Assembly: GCA_048498995.1 (NCBI GenBank)
Contig: JBEHWX010000005.1
Span: 12,758-76,757 of the forward strand
Direction: 5' to 3'
Length of the DNA stretch: 64,000 nt
DNA from: Bacteroidota bacterium
GTDB taxonomy: Bacteria > Bacteroidota > Ignavibacteria > OLB7
The translations under genes and the position numbers were made by a program. Within the stretch, counting starts at the first letter, position 1, and each line of letters begins with the position of its first letter. The notes under the pieces were generated by a model. The model saw only the letters and a program-made list of their open reading frames with translations, ran no database searches and was not told the origin of the DNA. This document shows positions 6,401 through 24,740 of the stretch, piece by piece.

Positions 6401-9400
6401 GCTGCGCGGTGTTGACCGCGTCGGCGGCAAGCTTCACGCTCGTCACCGAGCTGTCGGCAAGCTTTGCCGTCGTCACGTTCGCGTCGGCGATCTTCGAGGT
6501 CGTCACCGAGCCGTCGGCAAGCTTCGCCGTCGTCACGTTCGCGTCGGCGATCTTCGAGGTCGTCACCGAGCCGTCGGCAAGCTTCGCCGTCGTCACGTTC
6601 GCGTCGGCGATCTTCGAGGTCGTGATTGCGCCGTCGGCCACATGAGCCGTATTCACCGCATTCGTACCCAGCTTCAGGCTCGTCACCGCGCTATCGGCCA
6701 GCTTCGGCGTCGTCACCGATCCATCGGCGAGCTTGGCCGTCGTCACGTTCGCATCGGAGATCTTCGAGGTCGTGATGGCGCCGTCGGCCACGTGGACCGT
6801 GGTCACCGAGCCGGTACCGAGCTTCACGCTCGTGATCGAGCTGTCGGCCAGCTTCGGCGTGGTCACATTGCCATCGGCAAGCTTCGGCGTGGTGATCGCG
6901 CCATCGGCCACGTGGGCCGTATTGACGGCCGCGGTGCCGATCTTCAGGCTCGTCACCGAGCTGTCGGCAAGCTTCGCCGTCGTCACACTGCCATCGGCCA
7001 GTTTGGCCGTGGTCACGTTGGCGTCGGCAAGCTTCGAGGTCACGATGGCACCGTCAGCGACATGAGCGGTGTTGACCGCGCTGGTGCCGAGCTTCGCGCC
7101 GGTCACCGAGCTGTCGGCAAGCTTCGCCGTCGTCACGTTACCGTCGACGATCTTCGCCGTGGTCACGCTACCGTCAGCGAGCTTGGCTGTCGTCGCAGCG
7201 CCATCAGCGAGCTTCGGCGTCGTCACCGAACCATCCGCGATATGCGCCGTGGTCACCGCGCCGGTGCCGAGCTTCGCGCCGGTCACCGAGCTGTCAGCAA
7301 GCTTCGCGGTCGTCACGTTGCCATCGGCAAGCTTCGCCGTGGTCACGCTGCCGTCGGCGAGCTTCGCCGTGGTCACGTTCGCGTCGGCGATCTTCGAGGT
7401 CGTGATGGCACCATCGGCCACATGAGCCGTGTTCACCGCATTCGTGCCCAGCTTCACGCCGGTCACCGAGCTGTCGGCCAGTTTCGCCGTCGTCACCGAG
7501 CCGTCGGCCAGCTTGGCGGTCGTCACATTCGCGTCGGCAAGCTTCACGGTGGTCACCGCGCCGTCGGCAAGCTTCGGGGTCGTCACCGAGCCATCGGCCA
7601 AGTGCGCGGTGTTGACCGCGTCGGCGGCGAGCTTCACGCTTGTCACGGAGCTGTCGGCCAGCTTCGCGGTCGTCACGTTACCGTCAACGATCTTCGCGGT
7701 GGTCACGCTACCGTCAGCGAGCTTGGCCGTCGTCACGTTCGCATCGGCAAGCTTCGCCGTCGTGATCGCGCCGTCGACGACGTGAGCCGTATTGACGGCA
7801 TTGGTGCCGAGCTTCACGCCGGTCACCGAGCTATCGGCAAGCTTCGCGGTCGTCACGTTGCCGTCGACGATCTTCGCCGTCGTCACACTGCCATCAGCGA
7901 GCTTCACGGTCGTTACCGAGCCATCGGCCAGCTTCGCGGTAGTTGCAGCACCATCAGCAAGCTTCGGCGTCGTCACCGAGCCATCGGCCAGGTGCGCCGT
8001 GGTCACCGCGCTGGTGCCGAGCTTCGCGCCGGTCACCGAGCTGTCAGCGAGCTTCGCCGTGGTAACGCTTCCGTCGGCGAGCTTCGCCGTCGTCACCGAT
8101 CCGTCAGCCAGCTTCGCGGTCGTCGCCGCACCATCAGCGAGCTTCGGCGTCGTCACCGAGCCGTCCGCGATATGTGCCGTGGTCACCGCATTCGTGCCCA
8201 GCTTCACGCCGGTCACCGAGCTGTCGGCCAGCTTGGCCGTCGTCACATTCGCGTCGGCCATCTTCGCGGTGGTCACCGCGCCGTCAGCCAGCTTCGGCGT
8301 CGTCACCGAGCCATCAGCCAGGTGCGCCGTGTTCACCGCGTTGGTGCCGAGCTTTGCGCTCGTCACCGAGCTGTCGGCCAGCTTCGCCGTCGTCACGTTG
8401 CCATCGACGATCTTCGCGGTGGTCACCGAGCCGTCAGCGAGCTTGGCGGTCGTCACGTTCGCGTCGGCGATCTTCGCCGTCGTGATCGCGCCGTCGACGA
8501 GGTGAGCGGTGTTGACCGCATTGGTGCCGAGCTTCACGCCGGTCACCGAGCTGTCGGCAAGCTTCGCGGTCGTCACGTTGCCGTCGACGATCTTCGCGGT
8601 GGTCACCGAGCCGTCGGCAAGCTTCACGGTCGTTACCGAGCCGTCGGCAAGCTTGGCGGTAGTTGCAGCGCCATCGGCAAGCTTCGGCGTCGTCACCGAG
8701 CCATCGGCCAGGTGCGCCGTGTTCACCGCATTCGTGCCGAGCTTCGCGCTCGTCACCGAGCTGTCGGCCAGCTTCGCCGTCGTGACATTGCCATCGACGA
8801 TCTTCGCCGTCGTCACGCCGCCGTCAGCAAGCTTCGCCGTCGAAACACTTCCGTCAGCGAGCTTGGCCGTGGTGACCGAGCCATCGGTGAGGTCGGAAGT
8901 GACGATACTATTGTTGAGATTCAGCTTGCCGTAGGCGATCGAGGCCGTCGGGCTCACGTCGGCATCGACTATCGTACCGTCGGCGATCTTCGCCGAGGTC
9001 ACCGATCCGTCGGCAAGCTTCGCGGTACCGATGGCGCCGTCGGCGATCTTCGCCGAGGTGATCGCGCCATCGGTCACATGGGCGGTATTCACGGCATTGG
9101 TGCCGAGCTTGGCGCCCGTAACGGAGCTGTCAGCCAGCTTCGCCGTGGTCACGCCACCGTCGGCAAGCTTCGCGGTCGACACACTGCCATCGACAAGCTT
9201 CGCCGTGGTCACGCTGCCATCAGCCAGCTTCGCGCTCGTGATCGCGCCGTCGGTCACATGTGCCGTGGTGACGGCGTTGGTGCCGAGTTTGGCGCTGGTC
9301 ACCGCGCTATCGGCCAGCTTCGCGGTCGTCACGCTGCCATCGGCAAGCTTGGTCGCGGTCACACTGGCGTCGGCGAGCTTCGGGGTGGTGACACTGCCGT

Positions 9401-11339
9401 CAGCGAGCTTCGCGGTCGCGATGGCACCGTCGGCGATCTTCGCCGACGTGATGGCGCCGTCGGTTACGTGCGTCGTGGTAACGGCGTTGGTGCCGAGCTT
9501 CGCGGAGGTTACCGCGCTGTCGGCGAGCTTGGCGGTCGTGACATTGCCGTCGACGATCTTCGCGGAGGTCACCGATCCGTCAGCCAGCTTCGCGGTGGTC
9601 ACCGATCCATCGACAAGCTTCGCGGTCGAGACCGAGCCATCGGCAAGCTTCGCCGTGGTCACGGCGCCGTCAGTCAGATCACCCGTCGTGATGCTGTTGG
9701 CCAGATTGAGCTTGCTGTAGGCGATGGCGGCGGTCGGCGAAACATCGGCGTTGACGATCGTGCCGTCGGCGATCTTCGCCGAGGTCACCGATCCGTCGGT
9801 CAGCTTCGCGGTACCGATGGCGCCGTCGGCGATCTTCGCCGAGGTGATCGCGCCGTCGGCAACATGGGTCGTGGTGACGGCGTTGGTGCCGAGCTTCGCG
9901 GAGGTCACCGCGCTATCGGCCAGCTTCGCCGTGGTCACATTGCCATCGACGATCTTCGCCGTCGAGACCGAGCCGTCGGCCAGCTTCGCGGAGGTGACGG
10001 AGCCATCGGCGAGCTTCGCGGTCGTGGCGCTGCCGTCGGCCAGCTTGGCCGAGGTCACGCCGCCGTCGGCGAGCTTCGCGGTCGTCACGCTGCCATCGGC
10101 CAGCTTCGTGGAGGTCACGGCATTGGCGGCGATGGTCGGGTTCGGGAAGGTGCCGGTCAGATCTCCACCGGCCTCGCCGGTCGGCGGCAGCGACGTCGGG
10201 GCTCCGGAGAGCTTCGAGTAGCTGATGCCGTTGGCGACCTTCGCGTCGGTGATCGCGCCGTCGGCCACGTGGGCAGTAGTGACCGCGCCGGTGCCGAGCT
10301 TCACGCTGGTCACCGCGCTGTCGGCGAGCTTCGCCGTGGTCACCGAGCCGTTGGCAAGCTTCGCCGTCGTGACCGAGCCATCGGCCAGCTTCGCCGTCGA
10401 GACCGAGCCATCGGCGAGCTTCGCGCTGGTCACGGCACCGTCGGCCAGGTCACCGGTCGCGATGCTGTTGGCCAGGTCGAGCTTGCTGTAGGCGATGGCG
10501 GCGCTCGGCGAGACATCGGCATCGATGATCGTGCCGTCGAGGATCTTCGCGGTGGTCACCGAACCATCTGCCAGCTTCGCGGTCGCAACCGAGCCGTCAG
10601 CCAGCTTCGTGGAGGTCACCGAACCGTCGACGATCTTCGCGGAGGTCACCGAGCCGTCAGCCAGCTTCGTGGAGGTAACGCTCCCATCGGCCAGTTTGGC
10701 CGAGCTCACCGATCCGTCTGCCAGCTTGGCGGTGATCACCGATCCGTCGATCAGCTTCGTCGAGGTGACGCTGCCATCGGCCAGCTTCGGGGAGGTCACC
10801 GCGCCATCGGCCAGCTTCGGAGTCGTGACCGAGCCGTCGGCAAGTTTCGCGGTGGTCACCGATCCGTTGGCCAGCTTCGCTCCGGTGATCGATCCGTCGA
10901 GGATCGAGCTCATGTCGATCTCGCCGGCAACGGCCATCGAGGTGTCGGCCCGGTGCGCGCGCACCGCGTACGGGGAGATCGGTAGCTGGATACGCGGGGT
11001 CAGCTCCGCGCCGCTGCCGACGCTGATGCCCACCCAATACTGCTGGTCGAACTGAATGCTCGCGAGCGACGTGTAATTGCCGAGGATGACATTGAAGCGC
11101 TTCACCTGGCCGGCCGTGATCAGGGGCACATTGAAGCTCTCGGTCCAGATTGCCGTTCCGCCGGAAGCGGACGTATACAGTCTGAAGGTCATCATCGGGT
11201 TGGTGCTCAACCCAGCCTGGGTGTTCGTAAGATCACCCTGTAGACTCAAGGTAGGTGGCACCTGCGCATACGCGGACGTACCGCTCAGCGCAATCACGCC
11301 GCATGTTACGATCGCATGCAGTAGTGATCGGTTCCTCAT
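453..11339 (-). CDS. Giant secreted decapeptide-repeat protein (tail-fibre-like), 3,628 aa
   Basis: Uninterrupted ORF (track 453..11384). I prefer the ATG at 11339 because GGGAG lies 7 nt upstream and it gives a Sec signal peptide (MRNRSLLHAIVTCGVIALSGTSAYA|Q). After a ~150-aa N-terminal domain, most of the length is a 10-aa repeat [KR][LIV]AD[GSA]xVT[TS]x. It is punctuated 8 times by GGDL[TS]GT[YF]PNPTIA, by AIAYSKL[ND]L, and by PTGA[ST]xGQxLxYNG motifs. Two ~110-aa copies of 'NATLSGNG..NTWTANQTF..' lie near the C-terminus. Confidence 0.85.
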   Translation of the reverse strand: MRNRSLLHAIVTCGVIALSGTSAYAQVPPTLSLQGDLTNTQAGLSTNPMMTFRLYTSASGGTAIWTESFNVPLITAGQVKRFNVILGNYTSLASIQFDQQYWVGISVGSGAELTPRIQLPISPYAVRAHRADTSMAVAGEIDMSSILDGSITGAKLANGSVTTAKLADGSVTTPKLADGAVTSPKLADGSVTSTKLIDGSVITAKLADGSVSSAKLADGSVTSTKLADGSVTSAKIVDGSVTSTKLADGSVATAKLADGSVTTAKILDGTIIDADVSPSAAIAYSKLDLANSIATGDLADGAVTSAKLADGSVSTAKLADGSVTTAKLANGSVTTAKLADSAVTSVKLGTGAVTTAHVADGAITDAKVANGISYSKLSGAPTSLPPTGEAGGDLTGTFPNPTIAANAVTSTKLADGSVTTAKLADGGVTSAKLADGSATTAKLADGSVTSAKLADGSVSTAKIVDGNVTTAKLADSAVTSAKLGTNAVTTTHVADGAITSAKIADGAIGTAKLTDGSVTSAKIADGTIVNADVSPTAAIAYSKLNLANSITTGDLTDGAVTTAKLADGSVSTAKLVDGSVTTAKLADGSVTSAKIVDGNVTTAKLADSAVTSAKLGTNAVTTTHVTDGAITSAKIADGAIATAKLADGSVTTPKLADASVTATKLADGSVTTAKLADSAVTSAKLGTNAVTTAHVTDGAITSAKLADGSVTTAKLVDGSVSTAKLADGGVTTAKLADSSVTGAKLGTNAVNTAHVTDGAITSAKIADGAIGTAKLADGSVTSAKIADGTIVDADVSPTASIAYGKLNLNNSIVTSDLTDGSVTTAKLADGSVSTAKLADGGVTTAKIVDGNVTTAKLADSSVTSAKLGTNAVNTAHLADGSVTTPKLADGAATTAKLADGSVTTVKLADGSVTTAKIVDGNVTTAKLADSSVTGVKLGTNAVNTAHLVDGAITTAKIADANVTTAKLADGSVTTAKIVDGNVTTAKLADSSVTSAKLGTNAVNTAHLADGSVTTPKLADGAVTTAKMADANVTTAKLADSSVTGVKLGTNAVTTAHIADGSVTTPKLADGAATTAKLADGSVTTAKLADGSVTTAKLADSSVTGAKLGTSAVTTAHLADGSVTTPKLADGAATTAKLADGSVTTVKLADGSVTTAKIVDGNVTTAKLADSSVTGVKLGTNAVNTAHVVDGAITTAKLADANVTTAKLADGSVTTAKIVDGNVTTAKLADSSVTSVKLAADAVNTAHLADGSVTTPKLADGAVTTVKLADANVTTAKLADGSVTTAKLADSSVTGVKLGTNAVNTAHVADGAITTSKIADANVTTAKLADGSVTTAKLADGNVTTAKLADSSVTGAKLGTGAVTTAHIADGSVTTPKLADGAATTAKLADGSVTTAKIVDGNVTTAKLADSSVTGAKLGTSAVNTAHVADGAIVTSKLADANVTTAKLADGSVTTAKLADSSVTSLKIGTAAVNTAHVADGAITTPKLADGNVTTPKLADSSITSVKLGTGSVTTVHVADGAITTSKISDANVTTAKLADGSVTTPKLADSAVTSLKLGTNAVNTAHVADGAITTSKIADANVTTAKLADGSVTTSKIADANVTTAKLADGSVTTSKIADANVTTAKLADSSVTSVKLAADAVNTAQLADGSVTTPKLADGAVTTAKMADANVTTSKLADGSVTTPKLADSAVTSVKIGTNAVTTVHVADGAITTAKMADANVTTAKLADGSVTTAKIADGNVTTAKLADSSVTSLKLGTAAVNTAHVADGAITTSKLADGSVTTAKIVDANVTTAKLADSSVTSVKLGTDAVNTAHVADGAITSAKIADGTITNADVNASAAIAYSKLDLAGSIATGDLANGSVTSAKIADSTITDADVSPTAAINYSKLNLANSIVTADLTNNAVTTAKIADGSVTTAKLADSAVTSLKIGTGAVNTAHIADGSVISIKLADGSVLTAKIADAAITTVKISDDAVTSAKIADGAITNADVNASAAIAYSKLNLTGSIATTDLVDGSVTSAKIADGTIANADVATNAAIAYSKLNLTNSIVAADLTDGSVTTAKLADANVTTAKIADGTIATADLADASVTTAKLADSSVTSVKIGAAAVNTAHLADGSVTSAKISDGTITNADVNASAAIAYSKLNLANSIATSDLTDSSVTSAKIADSTIMDVDVAPNAAIAYSKLNLTNHIVNSDLTLGAVNSVSIEDESVVAVDIASGAVTTAKLADEAVTLPKIDPTGASAGQSLMYNGSSLVWGGSTPGGAAGGDLTGTYPNPTIANDAVTSAKIADGTIATSDLADGSVTSAKIADGTIATGDLANGSVTSAKIADGTIVNADVSPTAAIAYSKLALTSSIVNGDIAVGAVNSASIADASIVAADIAAGAVTTSKLADGSVTTAKLADSAVTSVKLGTNAVNTAHVKDGAITSAKILDGTIATGDLADGSVTSAKIADGAITNADVNASAAIAYSKLNLANSIVTADLTDGSVTTAKLADSAVTSLKLGTAAVNTAHVADGAITDAKVANGISYSKLTGAPTDLPPSGAAGGDLSGTYPNPTIAANAVTTSKISDANVTTAKLADASVTTVKVADGNVTTAKLADSAVTSLKLGTSAVNTAHVADGAITSAKIADGTIVDADINASAAIAYSKLNLSNSIVAGDITADAVTTSKIADGSVTTPKLADGSVTTAKIVDANVTTAKLADSAVTSLKLGTAAVNTAHVADGAITDAKVANGISYSKLTGAPTDLPPSGAAGGDLSGTYPNPTIAANAVTTSKITDANVTTAKLADSAVTSVKLGTDAVNTAHVADGAITSAKIADGTIVDADINASAAIAYSKLNLSNSIVAGDITADAVTTSKIADGNVTTAKLADSAVTSLKLGTAAVNTAHVADGAITDAKVANGISYSKLTGAPTDLPPSGAAGGDLSGTYPNPTIAANAVTTSKITDGNVTTSKLADSAVTSLKLGTDAVTTAHVADGAITSAKIADGTIVSADLATGAVATSNIDPTGATSGQALTYNGTNVVWSTPTSNVTHNATLSGNGSSGSPLAVNLGNANTWTANQTFAGTFMIASNSRIALTNSDNNARDIRWQEPSGTGTQYVGLRAPSVSNSGNYVLPAVVGSVGQVLSLATSNGIDSATMTWITPTASGTAGGDLTGTYPNPTIADNAVTTSKIADANVTLAKISAAGASSGQVIGYDGANVVWTTGGASGSAGGDLTGTYPNPTIANDAVTSAKIADGTIVDADISSSAAIAYSKLSLANSIVAADLTDGAVTSAKILDGTIATADLADSAVSGLKLATNAVTTAHIANAAVTPSKIDPTGATSGQALTYNGTNVAWTTVSATVTHNATLSGNGTSGSPLAVNLGNANTWTANQTFAGTFMIASNSRIALTNSDNNGRDIRWQEPSGTGTQYVGLRAPSVSNSGNYVLPAVVGSVGQVLSLATSNGVDSATMTWTTPTATPSGSAGGDLSGTYPNPTIASNAVTTSKISDGNVTPAKMSTSGASTGQVLTYNGSSAAWGYGRVKMARTTVTGAPGGTTYNAASTDEIIGVDVTSGPATVNLPAANSVPAGAVIVIKNELGNAGTNNITISRSGTDLINASSTSLSITFGTATGSFRLYSDGVSRWHQW
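850..2340 (-). repeat. Long direct duplication inside the giant gene (two ~0.55-kb copies, 939-bp offset)
   Basis: Near-identical DNA at ~850..1400 and ~1790..2340. For example, 981 ggtcatcgtggccgagtcca.. matches 1920 ggtcatcgtggccgagtcga... The plus-strand shadow ORFs 1066..1353 and 2005..2292 both begin MPLFETDGARRPTYCVPVPLGSCQR. Confidence 0.85.
6481..6623 (-). repeat. Exact 60-bp tandem duplication (2 full copies plus 23 nt of a third)
   Basis: Lines 6481..6540 and 6541..6600 are identical (gcgtcggcgatcttcgaggtcgtcaccgagccgtcggcaagcttcgccgtcgtcacgttc). The next 23 nt repeat again. This encodes (TSKIADANVTTAKLADGSVT)n. Confidence 0.95.
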
Positions 11340-11346
11340 TATGAAA

Positions 11347-11351
11347 CTCCC
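11347..11351 (-). promoter_or_regulatory. Shine-Dalgarno-like GGGAG for the giant gene
   Basis: Minus-strand GGGAG lies 7 nt upstream of the ATG at 11339. Confidence 0.5.
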
Positions 11352-12035
11352 GTTATTGGTCCTTACCGGGCACGAGGTCGTCATCCAGGCGGAGGGGTGA
11401 AGCGAGGCAGGAGAGCTGGCTGATCGAGATCGCCGGATCTAGATATTGTGCGAAACTGATGTTATGTGGCCGGAATCGGAATGACGCGTTCCGTTCCGTG
11501 TTGGTCGACCGAGGAAGAATGCAACAGCATCACCCCTGGGAAGAGAGGAGATGGGGTCCTCGACGTCACGACGTCCGCATCGACGCCCTCAAGCAACAAC
11601 GCTGATCTTCATCACGAGAAGCGGCGATGGCCTGCCACCTCTCCCTCACGCGCTGCTTGCTTCGTACCGGGGGCGTGATGTCAACGACAAGATGAATGCG
11701 CGACGGGCATCGCCATCCAAAATCAACGTCGTCAATTCTGTCCACCGAGGTGGGGATGTCCCCTTCGGGCCTTCCCGGTGAACGATTGTGGAGTACGGTC
11801 CCAGATTGTGGGCGGGCAAATATACATGGCCATTTCGAAACGGCCCAATATGGGATGGAAATATGTTCAGCCATCATTCACCCCTCCCTCTCCCACGCTT
11901 CCGGCCCTCCCACGCCGGAATCCTCTCCCGAGCGGCACCCGGTTCCTCGGGGCCGGACGATGCCTCGGCCGATTGGCGAGCTCTTTGCATGGTCCGCCGG
12001 GGATGGCTTCGACAACAGACGCGGGAGAATGAAGG

Positions 12036-12383
12036 ATGAATCCGAAGTTCGATCTGGAGCAGGCCGGCGAGCTCCTCGGCAAGCGGGTGATCGTCGATCT
12101 GACGGTCCGTGACCATGACGAGCGGCTGGTCGAGCGGCGGCAGCTGTTCGGAGAGATCCAGCGGATCAACGAGAACGAGGGGGTGGTGCTGGAGCTGATC
12201 CCCTCCGGCGGCGATTATCGCCTCATCCCGGATCTCGACCAGTTCGTCCCGCTCGAACCGGGGGCCTACCGACTGGAGCCCGCGGGAGAAACGGCGGTCG
12301 ATCCGGACTTCCGCTTCGCCTCGGTGGTCCACCTTCCCCCACCCGAATACGACGGGGCGGCACGGGGAAGCGAGGCCGGATGA
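12036..12383 (+). CDS. Hypothetical protein, 115 aa
   Basis: ATG ORF with a balanced, non-Arg/Pro-biased composition (MNPKFDLEQAGELLGKRVIVDLTVRDHDERLVERRQLFGEIQRINENEG..). GGGAG/GAAGG lies just upstream. I recognise no motif. Confidence 0.5.
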   Translation: MNPKFDLEQAGELLGKRVIVDLTVRDHDERLVERRQLFGEIQRINENEGVVLELIPSGGDYRLIPDLDQFVPLEPGAYRLEPAGETAVDPDFRFASVVHLPPPEYDGAARGSEAG

Positions 12384-12754: not shown

Positions 12755-13894
12755 ATGTCTCAGCGCAAGAACAGCGGGCGCTCCACGGGGAAGGAGACGG
12801 CCGCAACGACCACCACGAACGACCTGCATCAGGAGCTCGCCGCACTTCAGGCGGCGGCCACGACTCGTCTTCTCAGCCTTGAGGAGACCGCCAGGATCGC
12901 CGAGCTCAGCAACTTCCTCGCGGTTCAGAGCCATGCTTCGCTCACGGCTCCGAAGGCCGCGCTCGGACCGCTCAGCGCGGTGACCGCCTCGCCGGCCGAC
13001 ATCACCGACGAGCTGGCCAAGGGAGGCCCGGCCTTCGGCGCCTTCGTCAAGAGCGTCGGCCTCGGCGTCGCCGATGCCCAGAGCGCGCTCGACCAGAACC
13101 TCGTCACCACCGCCCAAGCCCTCTCGAACACCAACATCGACGTGATCAGCGTGGTGCAGCAGGTGATCGACCCGACCGACGGCAGCCTTCAGAGCCTGAA
13201 CATCATCAAGGAGAAGCTGCCCTTGATCAACTTCCTGCCGCCGGTCTCCTATCAATGGACCCGCGTCTTCCTGCAGGCGGATATGAAGGTCTCGGAGTTC
13301 AACAGCGCCAACGGCTTCAACGTTCAGGGGAAGTCGAAGAGCTTCAGCGCCGGCATCTCCGGCAGCTACGGCACCGGCGGCTTCGGCATCAGCGGCGGAC
13401 TCCGCTACGGCTCGAGCAGCTACAGCGCCTCGGGCGAAAGCTCCTACAGCCAGGACGTGGCCGCCGGCAGCATGCACATGGAGGCGACCCTCGAGCCGCG
13501 TCCGGACATGGTGATTCCGCCGCCGTTCGTGCTCCAGAAGGGGCCGCGGCTGCGCGCGATGCCGAGCGGCATCATCAACATCGGCACCTCGCCGAACTAC
13601 ACCGGCCGCAAGGTGGTGATCACCCTCGAGCTGCTCAACGGCAGCACCGGGCTGGCCGGCAAGACGCTGGAGTTCCACACCAGCGACCCGATGGTCACCT
13701 ACAAGACCTGGCAGGCGTACGACTTCAACACCAACACCGGTTCGACCACCAGCACCGCCACCAACTCGACCGGCATCCTCTATCTGGAAGTCATTCGTGA
13801 CGGCGCGGCGTTCGATCCGGCCAAGGCCCCGACCCAGGTCGTTATCCGCTCGTGGTTCGGCCTCGTGGCCGCCGAGAGCGCCATCGTGGTGTAA
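12755..13894 (+). CDS. Hypothetical protein, 379 aa: helix motif, Gly/Ser/Tyr-rich beta insert, and a C-terminal Ig-like-looking domain; no signal peptide
   Basis: Strong SD and protein-like composition. Contains the motif SVGLGVADAQSALD, a low-complexity insert SGSYGTGGFGISGGLRYGSSSYSASGESSYS, and then ..SMHMEATLEPRP. The C-terminal ~120 aa (RKVVITLELLNGSTGLAGKTLEFHTSD..TNSTGILYLEVIRDG) resembles bacterial Ig-like folds by eye. Confidence 0.75.
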   Translation: MSQRKNSGRSTGKETAATTTTNDLHQELAALQAAATTRLLSLEETARIAELSNFLAVQSHASLTAPKAALGPLSAVTASPADITDELAKGGPAFGAFVKSVGLGVADAQSALDQNLVTTAQALSNTNIDVISVVQQVIDPTDGSLQSLNIIKEKLPLINFLPPVSYQWTRVFLQADMKVSEFNSANGFNVQGKSKSFSAGISGSYGTGGFGISGGLRYGSSSYSASGESSYSQDVAAGSMHMEATLEPRPDMVIPPPFVLQKGPRLRAMPSGIINIGTSPNYTGRKVVITLELLNGSTGLAGKTLEFHTSDPMVTYKTWQAYDFNTNTGSTTSTATNSTGILYLEVIRDGAAFDPAKAPTQVVIRSWFGLVAAESAIVV

Positions 13895-13898
13895 CGCC

Positions 13899-15179
13899 AT
13901 GGCACTTACTGATTTCCACCGCAGATTCGACGACAGCGTCCGCTGGCGTCTCACACCCGATGGTGTCGAGATCGAGGGGAGCGGCATCGAGCGGACGAAG
14001 GGAAATCCGGCCACGGTCACCAAGGTCTGGGAGAGTTATTCGGCGGAGATCAACCGCACGGCACGCTCACGAGGCGTGCCGTGCGCCTTGATCATCGCCA
14101 CGATCTGCACCGAATCGGGAGGACGCGCCTCGGCGATCCGCCTGGAGCCCGGCTACAAGTCGGACCAGGCGACGCCGGGAAAGGTCAGCCCGGGGCTGAT
14201 GCAGACGTTGATCTCCACGGCGCGCGAAGCGATGAAGGACAACTCGATCGATCGGGATTGGCTGCTGAAGGCGGGCAACTCGATCGAGGCGGGAACGGCG
14301 GTGATCGCCAAACAGTCCAGCAAGACGCACCTCGATCCCCCGTTGGTGGCCGCCGCCTACAACTCCGGCGGCGTCTACGAGCAGACCGGGGCGAACAATC
14401 GCTGGAAGCTGCGCCAGTACCCGATCGGTACCAGCGCTCACTGCGATCGCTTCATCAAGTTCTTCAACGACGCGGTCTACGTGCTGAAGAACCATGGGAC
14501 CAAGCCCTCGGTCGGGATCGAGAAGCTGCTCGACAACGCAGTCACCTCGGTCGGTCCGAGTGCCACATCCGGAACCACGAACGCCCCCGCGGCCAACAGC
14601 GCCACCGTCTCCGGCAGCCCGCGGGTCGCGTCCTCTCCCGGAGGACGGTCCTCCACCGGAGGACGGCAGGAGACGAAGTCGTCGAATGATATCAAGATCT
14701 CCTTCGGCCCGAACGCGAAGGCAGCCGACGTGACCGCCTACTCACGGACGGTCCTGGAGGAGATCATGAGAGCGGCCGACCTGAAGTCGGCTTCGATCTC
14801 AAGCACGCAACGGAATCCGGCCGATCAGGCTCGCGTGATGTACAACAACCTCGAGAAGTACGGCGTCGCCGCGCAGAAGAAGCTCTACGCGGCCGCCGGC
14901 GACAAGGTGATCGACGTCTACGCGAAGTCGAAAGCAGCCAACAAGTCCGCCGACCAGATCAAGGCGGACATGGAGCGGAAGATCATCGAGCTCGGGCCGA
15001 CCAGCGTCTCCCGACATGCTTCCGATCCGAAGATCCTGAACGTCTTCGACGTGGATCCGAGCTCCATCAGAAACCGCCGGGGCTTCGAGCAGGCGGTCAG
15101 GTCGGACAACCGCGTCACGAAGTTCCTCGTCCCTCCGGACGATCCGGGATACCACCTGGAGATCCCGCAGAAGCAGTGA
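13899..15179 (+). CDS. Lytic transglycosylase (GH23/SLT) domain protein with an uncharacterised C-terminal domain, 426 aa; no signal peptide
   Basis: The ATG at 13899 lies 4 nt after the upstream stop; the track ORF from 13797 overlaps the previous gene. SLT motifs are present: ..ICTESGG (catalytic Glu-Ser), GLMQ, AAYNSGG. A Ser/Pro/Gly linker follows. The C-terminal ~150 aa (..ISSTQRNPADQ..VSRHASD..FDVDP..PGYHLEI) is possibly LAS/M15-like; this is tentative. Confidence 0.8.
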   Translation: MALTDFHRRFDDSVRWRLTPDGVEIEGSGIERTKGNPATVTKVWESYSAEINRTARSRGVPCALIIATICTESGGRASAIRLEPGYKSDQATPGKVSPGLMQTLISTAREAMKDNSIDRDWLLKAGNSIEAGTAVIAKQSSKTHLDPPLVAAAYNSGGVYEQTGANNRWKLRQYPIGTSAHCDRFIKFFNDAVYVLKNHGTKPSVGIEKLLDNAVTSVGPSATSGTTNAPAANSATVSGSPRVASSPGGRSSTGGRQETKSSNDIKISFGPNAKAADVTAYSRTVLEEIMRAADLKSASISSTQRNPADQARVMYNNLEKYGVAAQKKLYAAAGDKVIDVYAKSKAANKSADQIKADMERKIIELGPTSVSRHASDPKILNVFDVDPSSIRNRRGFEQAVRSDNRVTKFLVPPDDPGYHLEIPQKQ

Positions 15180-15200
15180 CCACAACGAGAGATTCGACCC

Positions 15201-15539
15201 ATGGAGTTCGAATACCTGGACCCGTCCGACGGGGAGCGCGCGCTGCCGGTGCATCCGGCGGAGCACATCTTCGCGGCGATGGCCCGCAGCATGGTCGAAG
15301 CGCAGCGCGAGCTCGATGAGGCCGCGCGCGCGGCCATCCTCGAATGGGAGAACAACGGCGTTCCCCCCTCGGCGGTCGTATGGTCACTCTGCACGGCTAC
15401 CTTCCCGTCGGTACTCGGATGCCGTCCGAAACAGGAGCCCGGGGAACAAACGCGCATGAGCATCGCCCCGCGTCAGGAGGCGCGGGGCGGTGTCTCCTTC
15501 TCGATTCGCTACCACACCACTCCACTAGAGGAGCCCTAA
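15201..15539 (+). CDS. Hypothetical protein, 112 aa, carrying the shared helix motif
   Basis: ATG lies 21 nt after the upstream stop. Contains AMARSMVEAQRELD, then a beta-like segment ending GVSFSIRYHTTPLE. It is in an operon-like tight arrangement. Confidence 0.6.
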   Translation: MEFEYLDPSDGERALPVHPAEHIFAAMARSMVEAQRELDEAARAAILEWENNGVPPSAVVWSLCTATFPSVLGCRPKQEPGEQTRMSIAPRQEARGGVSFSIRYHTTPLEEP

Positions 15540-15544
15540 CCACT

Positions 15545-16795
15545 ATGGCACGACAGAGCTTCCGTGTCTCCGGCCGAGTGATCAACCGCACGACACGGCG
15601 TGGCGTCGGTGGTCTTCGGGTCGAGGCGTGGGATCGAGACATCAAGCACAACGACCCGCTCGGCTCGGCAATCACCGACGACAGCGGCACCTTCGCGATC
15701 GTCTACGACCGGTCGCGATTCGACGACGAGCCTCGCCGCCAGCGGCCCGACCTTTTCTTCAAGGTGTTCCGCAAGCGGACGCTCCTGGCAACCACCGCGA
15801 GCATGCCGATCGAGAACGCCGGCCGCCGACGCACCGTCAACATTGAAGTCGATCTCGACCTTGCCGCCTCGAAGGAGGGCGCCTCGAAGGAGGGCGCCCC
15901 GAAGGGAGGCGCTCGGAAGAAGGGGGAGAAAACCAACGCAACGACTACCAGGAAGGGAGGCGGCCGCGCCACGCGCGGCGGCGCGGGATCGGCGCGCAAG
16001 GCCAGCCCGAACGATCCGGTAATGCCGGTTCCGGTCGATCCGGATCCGGTCAAGACCGATCCGAACCAGCCTTCCCAGGCACCGTTGACCGGCTCCCTCC
16101 CCGAGGTGAGCATGCACGAGCTCGGCGAGAGCGTGGCCGCCGCGCTGGCCAACGTCCAGCAGGAGCTCGACCGGTATCAGAGCCCGCTCGGCGCCTTCGT
16201 GGTCGACGAGATCGATCTGACGATCCCGGCGCAGATGCGGGTCGATGAGCTGGGCCAGATGATGGTGATCGTCACCAGCCCCGACGGCACCACGCCGGCC
16301 GACGCCTCGCAGATCCGGCTCCGGATCAAGCCGGTGCTCGGATCGCACAACGACCCGCTGATGGCCGGAACGCAGCCGCTGTCGGACGTCACCGCCCTGG
16401 GCCCCGAGCTCATCGATGTGATGAAGTCCGCGCGCGTCTTCACCGTCAACGATTTCAGGCGCGTCACCCGGACGCCGCAGGGGAAGCTGGCGGTGCAATC
16501 GAAGCTCGGCTGGGGGGATGACGAATTCCGCCAGGTCTTCGAACAGATCAAGCTTCTGTCCCTGCCGGTTCTTCCGGTGGCGGTCTCCTCCCTCCTGACG
16601 CGAAAGCTCCGCATGCGGGGCATTCCCGACTTTCTGCAGTACGATTCGTCGGCGATCGCCGACATGATCAACGCGGATTCCGGGCAGGGAAAGGAAGGCT
16701 CCACCATGGTCACCCCGGAGCACGTGGACTGCTGGAAGGATGAGACGCGCACCTATATCGCGATCAAACCTCCCTGCGCCACCACGGCCAAGTGA
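15545..16795 (+). CDS. Transthyretin-like/CarboxypepD_reg-like beta-sandwich protein with a basic low-complexity linker, the shared helix motif and HhH-like C-terminal repeats, 416 aa
   Basis: The ATG at 15545 lies 5 nt after the upstream stop; the track ORF from 15344 overlaps that gene. N-terminus: FRVSGRVINRTTRRGVGGLRVEAWDRDIKHNDPLGSAITDDSGTFAIVY. Linker: SKEGASKEGAPKGGARKKGEK... Then SVAAALANVQQELD..FVVDEIDLTIPAQMRVDELGQMMVIV..SQIRLRIKPV. The C-terminus has LSDVTALGPELIDVMKSARVFTVNDF and LPVLPVAVSSLLTRKLRMRGIPDFLQY. Confidence 0.75.
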   Translation: MARQSFRVSGRVINRTTRRGVGGLRVEAWDRDIKHNDPLGSAITDDSGTFAIVYDRSRFDDEPRRQRPDLFFKVFRKRTLLATTASMPIENAGRRRTVNIEVDLDLAASKEGASKEGAPKGGARKKGEKTNATTTRKGGGRATRGGAGSARKASPNDPVMPVPVDPDPVKTDPNQPSQAPLTGSLPEVSMHELGESVAAALANVQQELDRYQSPLGAFVVDEIDLTIPAQMRVDELGQMMVIVTSPDGTTPADASQIRLRIKPVLGSHNDPLMAGTQPLSDVTALGPELIDVMKSARVFTVNDFRRVTRTPQGKLAVQSKLGWGDDEFRQVFEQIKLLSLPVLPVAVSSLLTRKLRMRGIPDFLQYDSSAIADMINADSGQGKEGSTMVTPEHVDCWKDETRTYIAIKPPCATTAK

Positions 16796-16918: not shown

Positions 16919-17626
16919 ATGCCCGAGGCACCGCTGGGACGGCGCGTTCCGTCCGACTGGAAGCATGTGGAGAAATACCCGTTCAGCGCGATGGCCTCCC
17001 CGGCCGTCACGACGGTCGAGCGCACGCTCCGGCTTCCGGAATACCGCGAGAAATACAATCAGATGCGTGAGGGGGCGTGCGTCGGCTTCGCCTCCTCCTG
17101 GATGATGTCGATCCTGAACCGGCGGCTGTACAACCCGCGCTGGCTCTGGAACGAGGCCAAAAAGATCGACGAATGGCCGGAGACCAATCCCGGCGACAAT
17201 CAGGGAACCTCGGTGCGCGCGGCGATGGATGTGCTTCGCGCGCAGGGACACGTCCGCGTGGTCCGCGGCCGGGAGTCCCCGCCCGATCTGGCCGACGGGA
17301 TCCTGGAAAACCGCTGGGCCACGACAGTGGACGAGATTCGCACGGCGATCGCCGGCGGCATCCCGGTGACGATCGGCGTCAACTGGTACACCGCGTTCGA
17401 CACGCCGACGCAGAAGGATGGGAACTGGTGGATCGGGGATGGTGATCTCGGCCATATCCGCGGAGGGCACTCGGTCTGCATCTTCCGCGCCTCCGACCGG
17501 CTGCAGGCCGTCGGCATCGTCAACAACTGGGGGCCGAGCTATCCGCTCGTGCTGATGCCCTACGGCGTCCTTTCCCGACTCCTCGGCGAGCAGGGAGAAG
17601 CGGCGCTGGTCACCGATCGCCCATGA
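16919..17626 (+). CDS. Papain-like cysteine peptidase (family C1-like), 235 aa; no signal peptide
   Basis: The catalytic signature is intact: Q-x5-C (YNQMREGACVGFASSWM), His (IRGGHSVCIFR) and Asn-Trp (VNNWGPSYP). The start at 16919 is supported by the SD; the track start at 16853 is an alternative. Confidence 0.8.
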   Translation: MPEAPLGRRVPSDWKHVEKYPFSAMASPAVTTVERTLRLPEYREKYNQMREGACVGFASSWMMSILNRRLYNPRWLWNEAKKIDEWPETNPGDNQGTSVRAAMDVLRAQGHVRVVRGRESPPDLADGILENRWATTVDEIRTAIAGGIPVTIGVNWYTAFDTPTQKDGNWWIGDGDLGHIRGGHSVCIFRASDRLQAVGIVNNWGPSYPLVLMPYGVLSRLLGEQGEAALVTDRP

Positions 17627-18245: not shown

Positions 18246-21101
18246 TCAACGGAGGATCCGCATCCTCCGGCTCTCATCGCCGACCGGCGTCTCCAGGCGA
18301 TAGTAGTAGACGCCGGCCGCCATCCCTCCCGCTCCCAGGCGATCGGGAACCACCTCGACGCTCTGCGCTCCCGGACCGAACACCCGGTCCAGCAGCGTGG
18401 CCACCTCCCGCCCGGCCGGATCGAACAGCCGCAGCCGCACCCGGCCGATCGGCATCGAGGCCGGCAGCGTAAAACGGATCGTGGTCCGCGCGCCGACCGG
18501 ATCGGGATAATTTCCTTCCAGCATCTTCCCCGTGTTCCCCGCCACCGTCCCATCCGACGAGCCTTCGCGATCGACTCCGAGCGTTCCGATCGACGTGGTG
18601 TAGACGCCGTTGCCGTGCGTCGCCACCGCCACGAACCCGTCGGACTGCCGCGCGTCGATCATGTCGACCACCACGTTCCCGATCGTCTCGCTCCCCTCCT
18701 GCGTCCATTGCGTGGAGGCGCCGTCGAGCCTCATCGTCGAGTACAGGCCGGTGCTGGTCGCCACCATGTACAGGGTGGTGGTGCCGCGATGCAGGAACGA
18801 GAACCAGCGGCAGGAAGGTCCCGCGCCCGATCCCGTGGTCGCGTTCGGCTCCAGGTTGCCGCCGATCGGCGTCCAGGTCTCGCCGGCATCGGTGGTCAGG
18901 AACAGGCTCTGAACGCTGTAATTGGAGAAGACCACCACCGCCCTGTTGCCGTCGAGCGGATCGACCGAGATGCAGGTGACGTAGCCATCCTTCGGGAAGC
19001 TTCCGCCGGTGATCTCGATCTTCTGCGGATCCCCGGCGTCCGCCCCGTCGAGGCGGAACACGCGGCCGTTCTCGGTGCCGTAGTAGACCCGGTGCAGCGG
19101 CGCGGCGGCGGTCACCGCGAGGGCGCTGATCTTGGTGCTGTCGCTCACCTTCGCGCCGGCAAGGCGGGTCCAGTTGACCGACGTGCTCCGGTTCGGCGAG
19201 GCGGGAATCGCCGACAGATCGGAATTCCGCCAGAGGTCGACGCCGCCGGCCAGGAACATCATGTTCTGATTGGCCGGATCGAGCGTGAACGGATTGGTGA
19301 ACAGATAGCCGGTTCCCCCCTCGGGATCGACACGGGTCGAGGAGATCATGTTCCCCTGACCGTCGAGCCGGACGCGGAAGAGATAGCCGAACTGGTTCGA
19401 AACGTAGTAGGCGGAGCGCCCGTCGGCGATCGCGACGAAGGCGCCGTCGCTGGTTCCGCGCAGTGTCCAGGGAGCGGCGCCGTTGGCGGTCGCCGACATC
19501 CAGGTGCCGTTGTCCTGCAAGCCCCCCATCATCGTCGGGTCTCCCGGCGTGGCGTGGTCGATCGCGATCGAATAGAACTGCGTGGTCAGATAGCCGCCGT
19601 TGAGCGATTCCCACGCGACGGTGGCGGCGGTGGCGTCCGGGCTGCGATGGATGCCGCCGTCGCTGCCGGTATAGACCACCCGCGGATCGCGCGGGGAGAA
19701 GACGAGCGTATGCTGATCGGGATGATGCTCGGGATAGGAGTAATCGTTGATCACCAGCGTGTCCCGATCGAAGTTCTTGTAGCCGCCGATCCAGGCCGTC
19801 TTCGTCTTCGTGGCGAACGCATCGTCCGAGCGGTAGAGGTTGGTGCCGCCGATGAAGAGGACGTTCTCGTCGTCCGGCTTGGCGTGGACGTGGAGATCGT
19901 ATCCCCCCTGCGAGAAGAAGTCGCCGGAGCCGCCGCCGAATGCGGGAAGGTTCATCGAGCGATCCTCCCAACGGCCACCGCTCCCGGTGCCGTCGCCGGA
20001 GAGATAGGTGTATTTCCAGAGGCTCTGCCAGGAGGAATCGCCCCGGAAGTTCCTGCCGAGGAAGCCGCGTCCGGGGGTCTCGGCCAGCACGTAGAGAACG
20101 TTCGGATTCGACGGGGCCAGGCCGAGCACGATCCGTTCGGGATCGGCGGGGAAGCTGTCCGGGGTGATCTTCTTCCAGGTACCGGAGGCGCCGTCGACGG
20201 TGCGCCAGATGCCGCGGTTCACCCCGCCCCCTCCGATGGCGCCGTAGACCACTCCCTCGCGGGTGACCGTCACGTCGGTGTAAGGTCCCTGATAGTTCCC
20301 CGCCATGCCGCTGCCGCGGAGCACGTCGGTCCAGGTGGTGCCGCCGTTGGTCGAGCGGGAGATCACGCCGTAATAGGCGGCGTAGACCTCGTCCTGGGTG
20401 GTGTTCGACGGATCGACCGCGACGCTCCAGACGAAGTCCGACGGACGATCGAACAGGTGCGGCTTGTTCGAGGCGGTGGCCGCGAGCGGCGCCCAGGAGC
20501 GGCCGTTATCGGTCGACTTGAACAGCCCGTTTCCCTGGTAGTAGGCGTATGCCTCGGAGGCGCTGCTGCCGAGGAGCTCCCCGGTGCCGTAGTACCAGGT
20601 GGCGGAATGGCCGGGGCGGGTATCCTGCGTGATGCAGGTGACCGACGGAAGCTGTCCCGGAAGCGTCGTCTTGCTCCAGGTTCTCCCCCGATCGGTGGAG
20701 CGCCACATGCCGCCGGAGGTGCCGCCGGCCAGGATCGTATCCTCCCCGGTCACGTCGACGGCGAGGGCGCGCGTGCGGCCGCCGATATTGAACGGCCCGC
20801 GATGGTTCCAACTGTACTCCTGCATGCCGGCCCCCTTCATCATCGCCATGGATCTGCGGGGAAGCGTGGCCGCGTAGGCCAGCTCCCGCGCGCGAATCCT
20901 CTCGGGAATCCTCCCCGTGGCCGGATCGCGCAGGCGCAGATGCTCCCACTCGGCCCGAGCCGCGGGGTTCTCGCTCTCGCCGATCGCCTCCGGCTCCTCG
21001 CCGGCCGGCTCGCCGGGATGTCCCGGAGTGAGGATATGCGCCGAGAGCGCCGCGCAGGTCGCGATCAGCGCCAGATAGAGGGAAGTGCGTAGCCGTGTCA
21101 T
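18246..21101 (-). CDS. Secreted BNR/Asp-box beta-propeller protein with a T9SS C-terminal sorting domain, 951 aa
   Basis: The ATG at 21101 gives the signal peptide MTRLRTSLYLALIATCAALSAHI. Asp-box motifs are present: STDRGRTWS, STDNGRSWA, STNGGTTWT, TTDAGETWT. The C-terminus (..TTIRFTLP..VRLRLFDPAGREVATLLD..GVYYYRLE..RMRILR) is typical of a T9SS CTD. The track ORF extension to 24533 is antisense to the AddB-like gene. Confidence 0.85.
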   Translation of the reverse strand: MTRLRTSLYLALIATCAALSAHILTPGHPGEPAGEEPEAIGESENPAARAEWEHLRLRDPATGRIPERIRARELAYAATLPRRSMAMMKGAGMQEYSWNHRGPFNIGGRTRALAVDVTGEDTILAGGTSGGMWRSTDRGRTWSKTTLPGQLPSVTCITQDTRPGHSATWYYGTGELLGSSASEAYAYYQGNGLFKSTDNGRSWAPLAATASNKPHLFDRPSDFVWSVAVDPSNTTQDEVYAAYYGVISRSTNGGTTWTDVLRGSGMAGNYQGPYTDVTVTREGVVYGAIGGGGVNRGIWRTVDGASGTWKKITPDSFPADPERIVLGLAPSNPNVLYVLAETPGRGFLGRNFRGDSSWQSLWKYTYLSGDGTGSGGRWEDRSMNLPAFGGGSGDFFSQGGYDLHVHAKPDDENVLFIGGTNLYRSDDAFATKTKTAWIGGYKNFDRDTLVINDYSYPEHHPDQHTLVFSPRDPRVVYTGSDGGIHRSPDATAATVAWESLNGGYLTTQFYSIAIDHATPGDPTMMGGLQDNGTWMSATANGAAPWTLRGTSDGAFVAIADGRSAYYVSNQFGYLFRVRLDGQGNMISSTRVDPEGGTGYLFTNPFTLDPANQNMMFLAGGVDLWRNSDLSAIPASPNRSTSVNWTRLAGAKVSDSTKISALAVTAAAPLHRVYYGTENGRVFRLDGADAGDPQKIEITGGSFPKDGYVTCISVDPLDGNRAVVVFSNYSVQSLFLTTDAGETWTPIGGNLEPNATTGSGAGPSCRWFSFLHRGTTTLYMVATSTGLYSTMRLDGASTQWTQEGSETIGNVVVDMIDARQSDGFVAVATHGNGVYTTSIGTLGVDREGSSDGTVAGNTGKMLEGNYPDPVGARTTIRFTLPASMPIGRVRLRLFDPAGREVATLLDRVFGPGAQSVEVVPDRLGAGGMAAGVYYYRLETPVGDESRRMRILR

Positions 21102-21305
21102 GTCGTTGGTCCGCGTGATCAGCCGTCGGGGGTTGGAGGACGGGGTTGTTTCAGGCTCGTGAAGAAGGTGAAAGCTACACGTTTGCCCCGGCCGTGACAA
21201 GGGCCTCGAACCCGCTCCCCCTCGAGGCCGGCCTCCGCCCCGGCGCGTCGTATCTTTGCTGCGGCTCGTTTCCCCTCTCCCGAACATCGATCCCGAGCGA
21301 CGACG

Positions 21306-24300: not shown

Positions 24301-24740
24301 CCGACTACAAGACCGGGCACGCTCCGAGCGCGGAGGATGTCCGTCGGGGATTGAGCCTGCAGCTGATGATCTATCTGGAGGCGGTGCGGCAGATCCTCGC
24401 CACGCACTTCGCGCTTCCACTCCTCGACGTCAGGCCGGTCGGCGGGATCTACTACCAGCTCAAGCCGAGGGAGTCGGATATCGACGTCTCCTATCTCTTC
24501 GTGCCGAACGAGGTCCGGAAGAGCGTCGTGCACATGAACAGGTCATCCAGCGCGCCGGAGACGATCGAGGAGCTTGAGGAGGTAGTGGCGCTCGCGTTCG
24601 AGTTCGCCCGCGATTACGTTGAGGGGATCTCCACCGGGCAGTTCCCGACCACGCGCCACGATCTTGACGTGGCCTGCCGGGGATGCGATTATCGGGGATC
24701 GTGCAGGATCGTGGAGGGGGGAGGCGCGGCGCGGCGCTGA
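21306..24740 (+). CDS. AddB/RexB-like PD-(D/E)XK nuclease family protein with Fe-S cysteines, 1,144 aa
   Basis: TTG start. The N-terminal helicase-like region lacks a Walker A motif (YIFVVPTYRMQRDL). The C-terminal RecB-type nuclease has YGRCPFKYFARRIL, VDRIEL..FAVADYKTG and CRGCDYRGSC (C..CxxCx5C). Confidence 0.75.
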   Translation: MAQLLYNLLDPEAVLLDFNETALGAARRSELDRYIFVVPTYRMQRDLDLKLTRAHHEATGRPIERLHLYTMEGLARRLFAGVGPGRRDISGELQRALTRLAMENADLRFFARPDRPPSPGVVERIARIIAGIRADGMLPARLLEDIRYAESHPDAAGYDVGKLHDLHAIYDEYLRLLDSYWIDSPGRMLQVNAALLEDHDEVFRRVFPSATHLLVCGYTELSQPELMLLEGLGHVADLRVSIYFDYASENGPLYGNFDESIERLKNAGYDRFDLDPLDDGVAEEERRPFKHHMRRNLFRTDQRIANPAFDELINVYGFHGRDEEAEGIAALIKWRVIEEGIAPERICVAASDIEPYAPLLRTHMAEYGIPCIAATHFPLAESPLITAIFAALTIPVSGFARRDVIRAVTSPYLSFGAEIDPAALTAAAAQLRITRGRESWRRRIGQKIELVEGYMLRLTDEEERRVQAEELDLLRRAGRGFDHLAHRLEGLERELSAAEFRQTVHGFVARMRVAENILALRRSLDARPRAPLEWQRVHDGIEQDTRALARFLELVDELAEFFEVKDDLARGDQTRERRPLEFYLDHLRTAAARARFEIREKQGFGVSILPIHQLRGLQFDVVILCGMVDGEFPGTYIPEIFLGRPLPRAEERRMRRERIEFYQAITSFSRSLVLTYPRFAGERALVRSSFVDAFLRITTVEERGRVVELDELRAVRARIRDEGSATPHTAFVAMIGSPNALAEEAGEALWSGAEVPRFDDPSGIIEHLRFTAAIEQGRHRAELGADTAAVPEYRGIIGAALAPEERAELEEYRGREYSVSQLELYGRCPFKYFARRILAANAPTSFDVSLTPLERGTLLHRVLFRLYVELREHDELPVTEITRGAALARARALAREEIAGIVFDHPYWRIDQERLLGSDQVDGLLEQWIEYEATRRSDKSELAPAFFETGFGSSTVRGGTSDPLLTSDARMPLHGIAVRGKVDRIELFYHGDILYFAVADYKTGHAPSAEDVRRGLSLQLMIYLEAVRQILATHFALPLLDVRPVGGIYYQLKPRESDIDVSYLFVPNEVRKSVVHMNRSSSAPETIEELEEVVALAFEFARDYVEGISTGQFPTTRHDLDVACRGCDYRGSCRIVEGGGAARR

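Follow-up and report, generated by a model that had tools for sequence, protein, structure and literature searches.

A small helix and beta-meander module, probably common to three proteins of a dispersed gene cassette and distantly related to Trypco2/Pepco

A 64,000-nucleotide (nt) stretch from a Bacteroidota bacterium (Ignavibacteria, OLB7; GenBank assembly GCA_048498995.1, contig JBEHWX010000005.1, positions 12,758 to 76,757 of the forward strand), referred to here in full as the window, carries a tight plus-strand operon of five genes, A-B-C-D-E, in which the products of A, C and D are probably paralogous carriers of one small module. Judged by comparison of family profiles, this module consists of an amphipathic helix bearing a Q..L(D) turn and, after it, a beta-meander. 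It is probably also a distant relative of Trypco2, a pore-forming module of anti-phage defence now called Pepco, and not a member of that family by the Pfam model PF19631.

The first gene of the operon, A (12755-13894, 379 amino acids (aa), an open reading frame (ORF) with a ribosome-binding site), encodes a variable N-terminal region, the module and a C-terminal Ig-like domain. B (13899-15179, 426 aa) has a predicted SLT lytic transglycosylase domain followed by a C-terminal domain of about 200 aa, C (15201-15539, 112 aa) is the bare module, D (15545-16795, 416 aa) combines a transthyretin/CarboxypepD_reg-like domain, a linker, the module and a DUF4332/HhH-type domain, and E (16919-17626, 235 aa) is a predicted papain-like (clan CA) cysteine peptidase. 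The gaps between the genes are 4, 21, 5 and 123 nt.

One module in proteins A, C and D

An earlier, sequence-only reading of the window had aligned by eye a 14-residue motif and trailing beta segments in A, C and D, and had proposed that the operon encodes three copies of a single small domain, which differ in the size of their inserts. All nine peptide strings that it listed were found in the places given, in A at aa 100-113, 166-182 and 239-250 (nt 13052-13093, 13250-13300 and 13469-13504), in C at aa 26-39, 59-71 and 98-109, and in D at aa 196-209, 218-233 and 255-264 (nt 16130-16171, 16196-16243 and 16307-16336), and its protein lengths of 379, 112 and 416 aa were right. It erred in calling the three proteins consecutive, since the SLT transglycosylase gene B (13899-15179) sits between A and C. 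A by-eye alignment alone proves nothing: pairwise BLASTP among the A, C and D segments gave E values of 0.15-0.4 or no alignment, and families were therefore built for profile comparison. The A family comprises more than 130 homologues, all annotated as hypothetical. For D, a word search gave 18 homologues, and an exhaustive search of 1.84 billion representative proteins with the module profile gave 100 representative clusters. A word-indexed database search found a single homologue of C, the rest of that family being positional orthologues from about 40 loci around A homologues.

With module-restricted family profiles, HHalign linked A to C at 88-89% (E 2-3e-6) and C to D at 80% (E 1.3e-5), which bears out the proposal of one domain in three copies. 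Both matches stand well above their controls. Reversed profiles gave E values of 0.06-0.6, the unrelated operon proteins B and E gave 0.07-0.8, and 40 column shuffles per pair had a mean score of about 10 (standard deviation about 2) and a maximum of 17.9, against real scores of 39.1 for A–C and 30.6 for C–D. The A–D comparison was at background (E 0.02), so that of the three pairs foreseen by the sequence-only reading two are linked directly and the third only through C. A further link is provided by C', a protein of a variant cassette described below, which is intermediate between A and C (90.6% and E 1.3e-6 to A; 95% and E 3e-8 to C); the C' set, like the D' set from the same variant, holds 3-4 sequences only. 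The significant local alignments span the helix and the first strand, over 48-58 columns. The final Pro-ending strand, which had been read as common to all three proteins, does come into register under global alignment, but with low confidence and outside the significant local alignments.

The module lies at 13007-13504 in A (aa 85-250), where the helix with GLAVAxAQxxLD is followed by a 33-aa hairpin insert, the strand YQWTRVFLQADMKVSEF, a Gly/Ser hairpin and the strand HMEATLEPRP. The 14-residue motif of A, SVGLGVADAQSALD, occupies 13052-13093; among 42 homologues Q109 and D113 are invariant and L112 is kept in at least 90%. The corresponding motif of C is AMARSMVEAQRELD (15276-15317, within gene C). 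In D the module lies at 16100-16342 (aa 186-266), with the helix ELGESVAAALANVQQELD (motif at 16130-16171) and the strands FVVDEIDLTIPAQMRVD, MMVIV and QIRLRIKPV. Q and L-D had been taken as invariant. Q..L is indeed retained in all three families (122/122 members of A, 21/21 of C and 90/99 of D), but the Asp is conserved in A and C only (119/122 and 19/21, against 5/99 in D). The pattern [AV]Q..LD occurs seven times in the 91,705 six-frame ORF residues of the window, with three of these occurrences falling in A, C and D. The helices that carry the motif are amphipathic (muH 0.38-0.61).

AlphaFold2 models of A and D, together with the family consensus of C, have a helix and then a beta-meander whose last strand ends in Pro, in agreement with the helix and beta-like strands read from the sequence. 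For the A module the model has a helix at residues 92-125 and strands at 127-138, 145-156, 166-183 and 232-248, with a predicted local distance difference test score (pLDDT) of about 70-90 save in the Gly/Ser hairpin; for the D module it has a helix at 190-209 and strands at 223-233, 239-243 and 255-261, with pLDDT 63-72. Two points weigh against a single shared module, namely the background-level A–D comparison and the moderate confidence (pLDDT 63-85) of these monomer models. Scans of the window proteins with Pfam, NCBIfam, PADLOC and PHROG returned nothing beyond SLT for B and, for E, a PHROG peptidase, and none of these collections has a model covering the module. When the whole A and D models were searched with Foldseek against PDB and BFVD, the Ig-like and transthyretin-like domains found matches and the module found none.

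It is quite improbable, in our judgement, that the similarity is convergent, i.e. that unrelated amphipathic helices followed by beta-strands have come to look alike without common ancestry. Convergence would agree with the insignificant pairwise BLASTP results, with HHalign identities of only 14-29% and with the background-level comparisons of A with D and of A and C with Trypco2. It would not account for E values of 1e-5 to 1e-6 against 0.06-0.6 for reversed profiles, for real scores of 30-39 against shuffled scores of at most 17.9, for Q..L at the same helix position in three families, for the intermediate C' and D' sequences, or for the presence of A, C and D within one conserved cassette. 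Common descent of the three modules is the probable explanation.

A distant relationship to Trypco2/Pepco

Trypco1 and Trypco2 were defined as small proteins found alongside trypsin-like peptidases in NTPase-based conflict systems (Kaur et al. 2020, eLife, PMC7159879) and have since been renamed Pepco (Evans et al. 2025, bioRxiv 10.1101/2025.11.14.688446). According to the latter work, Pepco proteins are linked to proteases of the serine or cysteine type, constitutively form 9-11-mer beta-barrels with basal amphipathic helices that resist sodium dodecyl sulfate, and turn into pore-forming toxins once the partner protease removes the C-terminal tail (10.1101/2025.11.14.688446). The sequence-only reading had tentatively likened its domain to Trypco2. 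What survives of this is a remote relationship, suggested by profile matches of D and D', but not membership of the family, PF19631 giving no match.

A Trypco2 consensus sequence served as positive control and scored 120.7 bits on PF19631, for which the gathering score defining membership is 24.2 bits. As a tblastn query it retrieved 36 plasmid genes, of which 31 carry the annotation 'trypco2 family protein'. The Trypco2 alignment was made from 12 real proteins that were fetched, mostly from Streptomyces, and is shallow; the genes of these 12 adjoin trypsin-like peptidase, TPR or NACHT genes. Compared with this shallow alignment, the D module gave HHalign values of 23-58% and E values of 1e-4 to 9e-4, collinear over 74 columns from the helix to ..L.P. 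The D' subfamily, represented by 3-4 sequences, reached 72.7% and E 3.2e-5, again collinear over 74 columns, with a reversed control at E 0.13 and a shuffled maximum of 15.6 against the real score of 30.0. One D' protein matches a plain Trypco2 hidden Markov model in register (i-E 0.0034). D' is the closest relative of Trypco2 among the cassette modules.

Several results weigh against the relationship. PF19631 had no match at E<=1 in A, C or D of the window, and none at E<=10 in 42 A, 20 C and 26 D family members or in the isolated D module. The comparisons of A (E 0.02-0.07) and C (E 0.06-0.1) with Trypco2 were at background, so that these two modules reach Trypco2 only transitively, and the search of 1.84 billion representative proteins with the D-module profile found D-type proteins only. 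Trypco1 and Trypco2 were likewise absent when the members of the A, C and D families were scanned one by one with Pfam at E<=10; only Big_1 and DUF4332/HhH were matched by a sizeable share of them. Taken link by link, the chain A ~ C' ~ C ~ D ~ D' ~ Trypco2 is probable where it joins A, C and D and plausible at its Trypco2 end. Two proteins that matched the D profile in several stretches (P0223 and P0224) were rejected as relatives, being unrelated helical repeat proteins.

In architecture the two groups are alike in having modules of about 80 residues that open with an amphipathic helix, continue through a long first strand and a hairpin and close with a strand ending in ..L.P, in the serine or cysteine protease gene that adjoins them in part of the loci, and in their cytoplasmic precursors lacking a transmembrane helix. 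They differ in that the cassette modules fail the Pfam model and conserve a Q..L(D) turn absent from Trypco2, that at least three module copies occur per operon, fused to Ig-like, transthyretin-like and HhH domains, and that an SLT hydrolase belongs to the cassette. The cassette protease is a free papain-like or S8 enzyme and optional, whereas that of Trypco2/Pepco is sensor-fused (trypsin/STAND/VMAP, caspase). A Trypco2/Pepco protein typically stands alone beside a sensor-fused (STAND, VMAP, FGE) protease, and in the cassette only C is a stand-alone module. Nor is there a counterpart to the charged, Pro-rich, cleavable C-terminal tail of Pepco: C ends after its last strand, 0-6 residues past it across the family, while the A and D modules continue into linkers and folded domains. 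The lack in C of the long charged tail that is cleaved in Pepco is a further point against the comparison.

Composition and spread of the cassette

About 40 loci share a cassette of the form A–(SLT)–C–D–(papain-like or S8 protease). Among the 37 with enough downstream DNA, D is present in all 37, an SLT gene in 33 and C or C' in 30. A and D are the fixed core, to which C nearly belongs; bacterial loci usually have SLT, and the protease is optional. The papain-like E occurs in 8 loci (8-9/37); a gene matching Pfam Peptidase_C1 stands in its place in one locus (L061), and two others (L059 and L060) have Pfam Peptidase_S8 genes. In Geodermatophilus telluris (L017:10186-11313) and in P0204, C and D are fused, the C module being recognised at E 5e-17 and the D module at E 3e-23, a Rosetta-stone type of evidence which suggests that C and D act together. 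The variant cassette A–SLT–S8–A'–A''–C'–D' (L059:8001-16701) holds three A paralogues; L020 and L037 (13000-16900) have the layout A–SLT … A'–A''–C'–D' as in L059, the order with S8 being read from the annotated locus L059.

The hosts belong to the Actinomycetota, Chloroflexota, Acidobacteriota, Cyanobacteria, Myxococcota, Spirochaetia, Gemmatimonadota, Oligoflexia and Dormiibacterota, a patchy spread across bacterial phyla, and include two archaeal metagenome-assembled genomes, of Methanosarcina and Thermoplasmata, both without SLT. Origin of the cassette as the remnant of a phage or tailocin lysis module, comprising an endolysin and accessory proteins, would fit the match of E to the PHROG peptidase family phrog_16701 (1.5e-17) and the weak matches of B to PHROG endolysin (0.001) and lytic tail fibre families. 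This explanation seems to us very improbable, as relatives of A were absent from 2.9 million viral contigs, 50,697 phage records and 72,556 plasmids, and the nine annotated neighbourhoods contain no phage structural genes.

Outside its helix and strands the A module has two inserts: a hairpin of 33 aa separates the helix from the first strand, and a Gly/Ser-rich hairpin of about 54 aa precedes the last strand. The Gly/Ser/aromatic-rich region of the latter (13301-13468, aa 183-238), modelled at pLDDT below 50, has a family-wide composition of S 21%, G 16%, A 11%, N 8% and F 8%, and its length is constant across the A family. Members of the family show sporadic weak Pfam matches in this hairpin to OMP_b-brl, Autotransporter and, in one member, ETX_MTX2. 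The hairpin is a candidate membrane-inserting beta-hairpin. Its position, as a Gly/Ser/aromatic-rich segment of about 54 residues between long strands, resembles that of the Gly/Ser-rich stem hairpins of beta-barrel pore-forming toxins (aerolysin/ETX-MTX2, alpha-haemolysin), from which A differs in its architecture, in the lack of a significant sequence or fold match and in having no secretion signal. The C-terminal Ig-like (Big_1-like) domain (13526-13891) was modelled at pLDDT above 90 and matched Ig-like domains in Foldseek, and PF02369 (Big_1) is matched by 22 of 42 A family members.

Protein B contains an SLT domain at 14052-14375 (plus strand; PF01464, E 3.1e-11, 43.3 bits against a cut-off of 21.3), in which T71, E72 and G75 of the 'CTESGG' motif are invariant among 12 orthologues and S73 is not. 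Its profile also matches lytic transglycosylases of the PDB (Slt/MltC, E 0.007). By the PF01464 match and the catalytic Glu, B is assigned as an SLT lytic transglycosylase. The C-terminal half of B (14580-15176) is a conserved region of about 200 residues in which S371, H373, D376, E397, D415 and E421 are invariant and H419 nearly so ('VSRH..DP…GYHLE'). These motifs are reminiscent of LAS-type metallopeptidases; searches of Pfam and the PDB found no relative of this half, and the profile comparison with the PDB gave no fold assignment.

The peptidase E has a catalytic set of Q48, C54, H184 and N202, invariant in eight orthologues, and its profile matches the cysteine protease 3ois of the PDB (E 2.9e-7). 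From the Gln–Cys–His–Asn order and this solved relative, E is identified as a papain-like (clan CA) cysteine peptidase, although the Pfam Peptidase_C1 model has no match to E of the window.

In D, the transthyretin/CarboxypepD_reg-like domain at 15557-15850 is supported by Foldseek, and D orthologues carry 0-4 copies of it. The DUF4332/HhH-type domain at 16403-16762 is helical in the AlphaFold2 model (pLDDT about 90); the window protein has no match to PF14229, which 12 of 26 orthologues match (best E 2.4e-17), and a literature search on DUF4332 found nothing relevant. Between the first domain and the module, residues 109-184 (15869-16096) form a low-complexity linker rich in Lys, Gly, Ala and Pro, ASKEGASKEGAPKGGARKKGEK…PVPVDPDPVKTDP, with pLDDT below 50, which is confined to the window protein and its 98%-identical relative and absent from other D orthologues. 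An NCBIfam label 'CIS12' for two D orthologues was discarded, with 14.6 bits against a cut-off of 860; the one match that was located (L004) lies within the HhH region.

In another reading, the products of the cassette would form a surface or envelope-spanning structure resembling a pilus, a rod or a secretion machine, with paralogous subunits sharing the N-terminal helix and a dedicated lytic transglycosylase opening the wall. Specialised SLT enzymes accompany many trans-envelope machines, and several paralogues with one common N-terminal module, the Ig-like and transthyretin-like domains and a weak Foldseek resemblance of A to archaellin (E 0.02, not significant) would all suit such a structure. 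We nevertheless hold it to be unlikely. Missing from the cassette are an ATPase, a platform, a secretin, a prepilin peptidase, a signal peptide and a hydrophobic N-terminal helix, and the archaeal and some bacterial loci lack SLT.

In four of the nine Pfam-annotated neighbourhoods, defence-type genes lie within 8 kb of the cassette: nSTAND1-kinase-WD40 (L001:1248-6488), TIR_2 with nSTAND1 (L057:1-2523), a Cmr type III CRISPR module (L056:1-2999) and TPR-CHAT (L060:14794-17047). The cassette may therefore be associated with defence islands, a pattern that is suggestive only.

Around the operon itself, a 115-aa ORF at 12036-12383 on the plus strand, upstream of A, has no family match; it probably lies outside the cassette, because it is retained only in the near-identical contig L055 and is not found upstream of A in other loci. 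A promoter and terminator scan of the operon was uninformative. On the minus strand, 453-11384 is taken up by a giant ORF of 3,643 aa consisting almost entirely of repeats of about 10-11 residues of the 'ADGSVTTAKL' type, with recurring 'AIAYSKLNL...' and 'GGDLTGTYPNPTI' blocks, and probably encodes a very large surface protein of repetitive build; the long ORFs across from it on the plus strand are shadows cast by the repeats. Downstream, also on the minus strand (18246-24533), is a BNR/Sortilin-like beta-propeller protein (951 aa in L055:6348-9203) with faint Pfam matches and a tail of about 80 residues (…VYYYRLETPVGDESRRMRILR) that looks like a C-terminal sorting domain of the type IX secretion system, a hint of a host resembling Gemmatimonadota or Bacteroidota. 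Near the cassette, downstream of the BNR gene (L055:9407-12009, corresponding to the window beyond about 21.3 kb), is a UvrD_C and PDDEXK_1 helicase-nuclease gene (AddB/AdnA-like).

A possible assembly that breaches the membrane

The fusions, strict co-occurrence and multiplication of paralogues suggest that the A, C and D modules interact physically. In the mechanism that we propose, they would co-assemble through their strands into a mixed beta-barrel perforating the membrane, with the long Gly/Ser-rich hairpin of A as the membrane-spanning stem, and the Ig-like, transthyretin-like and HhH (DUF4332) domains of A and D would hang off the ring for regulation or targeting. Where a papain-like or S8 protease is present, it may license assembly by cleavage. 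Hydropathy indicates neither a transmembrane helix nor a signal peptide in A to E (maximum KD19 1.47). Through the breach the SLT hydrolase, which has no export signal, would reach the peptidoglycan as an endolysin does with the help of a holin, and the outcome may be programmed lysis or cell death of the abortive-infection type. We infer co-assembly, pore formation, protease gating and the role in lysis by analogy, and the mechanism as a whole is tentative, its chances falling somewhat short of even.

The proposal has known parallels. As in phage holin–endolysin systems, a murein hydrolase without an export signal is found beside small proteins that could breach the membrane; unlike those systems, the cassette has no holin with transmembrane helices and no phage context, and, to judge from their sequences, the proteins that might breach the membrane are soluble and rich in beta structure. 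The logic that a protease encoded nearby licenses a small pore-former would be akin to that of the protease-activated pores of EACC1 and bacterial gasdermins, to which no sequence relationship was detected.

A number of observations count against the proposal. Only about a quarter to a third of the loci have the protease, in no case as a fusion with a sensor, the cassette itself encodes neither a STAND protein nor any other sensor, and the SLT gene is absent from the archaeal loci and from four bacterial ones. Surface proteins are the more usual setting for Ig-like and transthyretin-like domains, and the six proteins scanned had no match at E<=1 in PADLOC-DB 2.0.

It is also conceivable that the module is a homotypic adaptor or oligomerisation handle, which gathers A, C, D, the hydrolase and the protease in a cytoplasmic or envelope-associated complex, e.g. 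for remodelling of the cell wall, without forming a pore. In favour of such a handle, the part of the module whose commonality is statistically supported is mainly the helix and one strand, C–D fusions and varied accessory domains attached to the modules are in keeping with it, and logic of this kind is common in the conflict systems in which Trypco was defined (PMC7159879). An adaptor would leave unexplained the conserved Gly/Ser hairpin of A with its constant length, the signal-less SLT, and the end-to-end collinearity of D and D' with a module shown to form a barrel pore, and we regard it as rather unlikely.

Stated at its fullest, the pore-forming mechanism would make the cassette a self-contained cellular lysis machine. 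At least three Pepco-like paralogues, one of them with a Gly/Ser stem hairpin, would form a heteromeric beta-barrel in the cytoplasmic membrane and release a cytoplasmic lytic transglycosylase, a step governed by a free papain-like or subtilisin-like protease. Such a machine would be an analogue of holin and endolysin made from beta-barrel subunits, spread horizontally across bacteria into archaea and serving altruistic death or the release of cargo. This fullest version is doubtful.

All three module-bearing families are currently annotated as hypothetical, and cultured hosts of the cassette include Streptomyces sp. Tue6028, Geodermatophilus telluris, Herbidospora mongoliensis, Planotetraspora spp. 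and Pannus brasiliensis. Should the link to Pepco be wrong, the cassette would be a widely dispersed unit of four to five genes with an unusual internal triplication. If the link is real, protease-licensed beta-barrel pore-formers, so far single small effectors of STAND/VMAP defence systems, would come to include a possibly heteromeric assembly of several paralogues, modules joined to folded domains and a pore coupled with a peptidoglycan hydrolase, and the operon would offer a simple model for the assembly and gating of bacterial beta-barrel pores from the cell interior.

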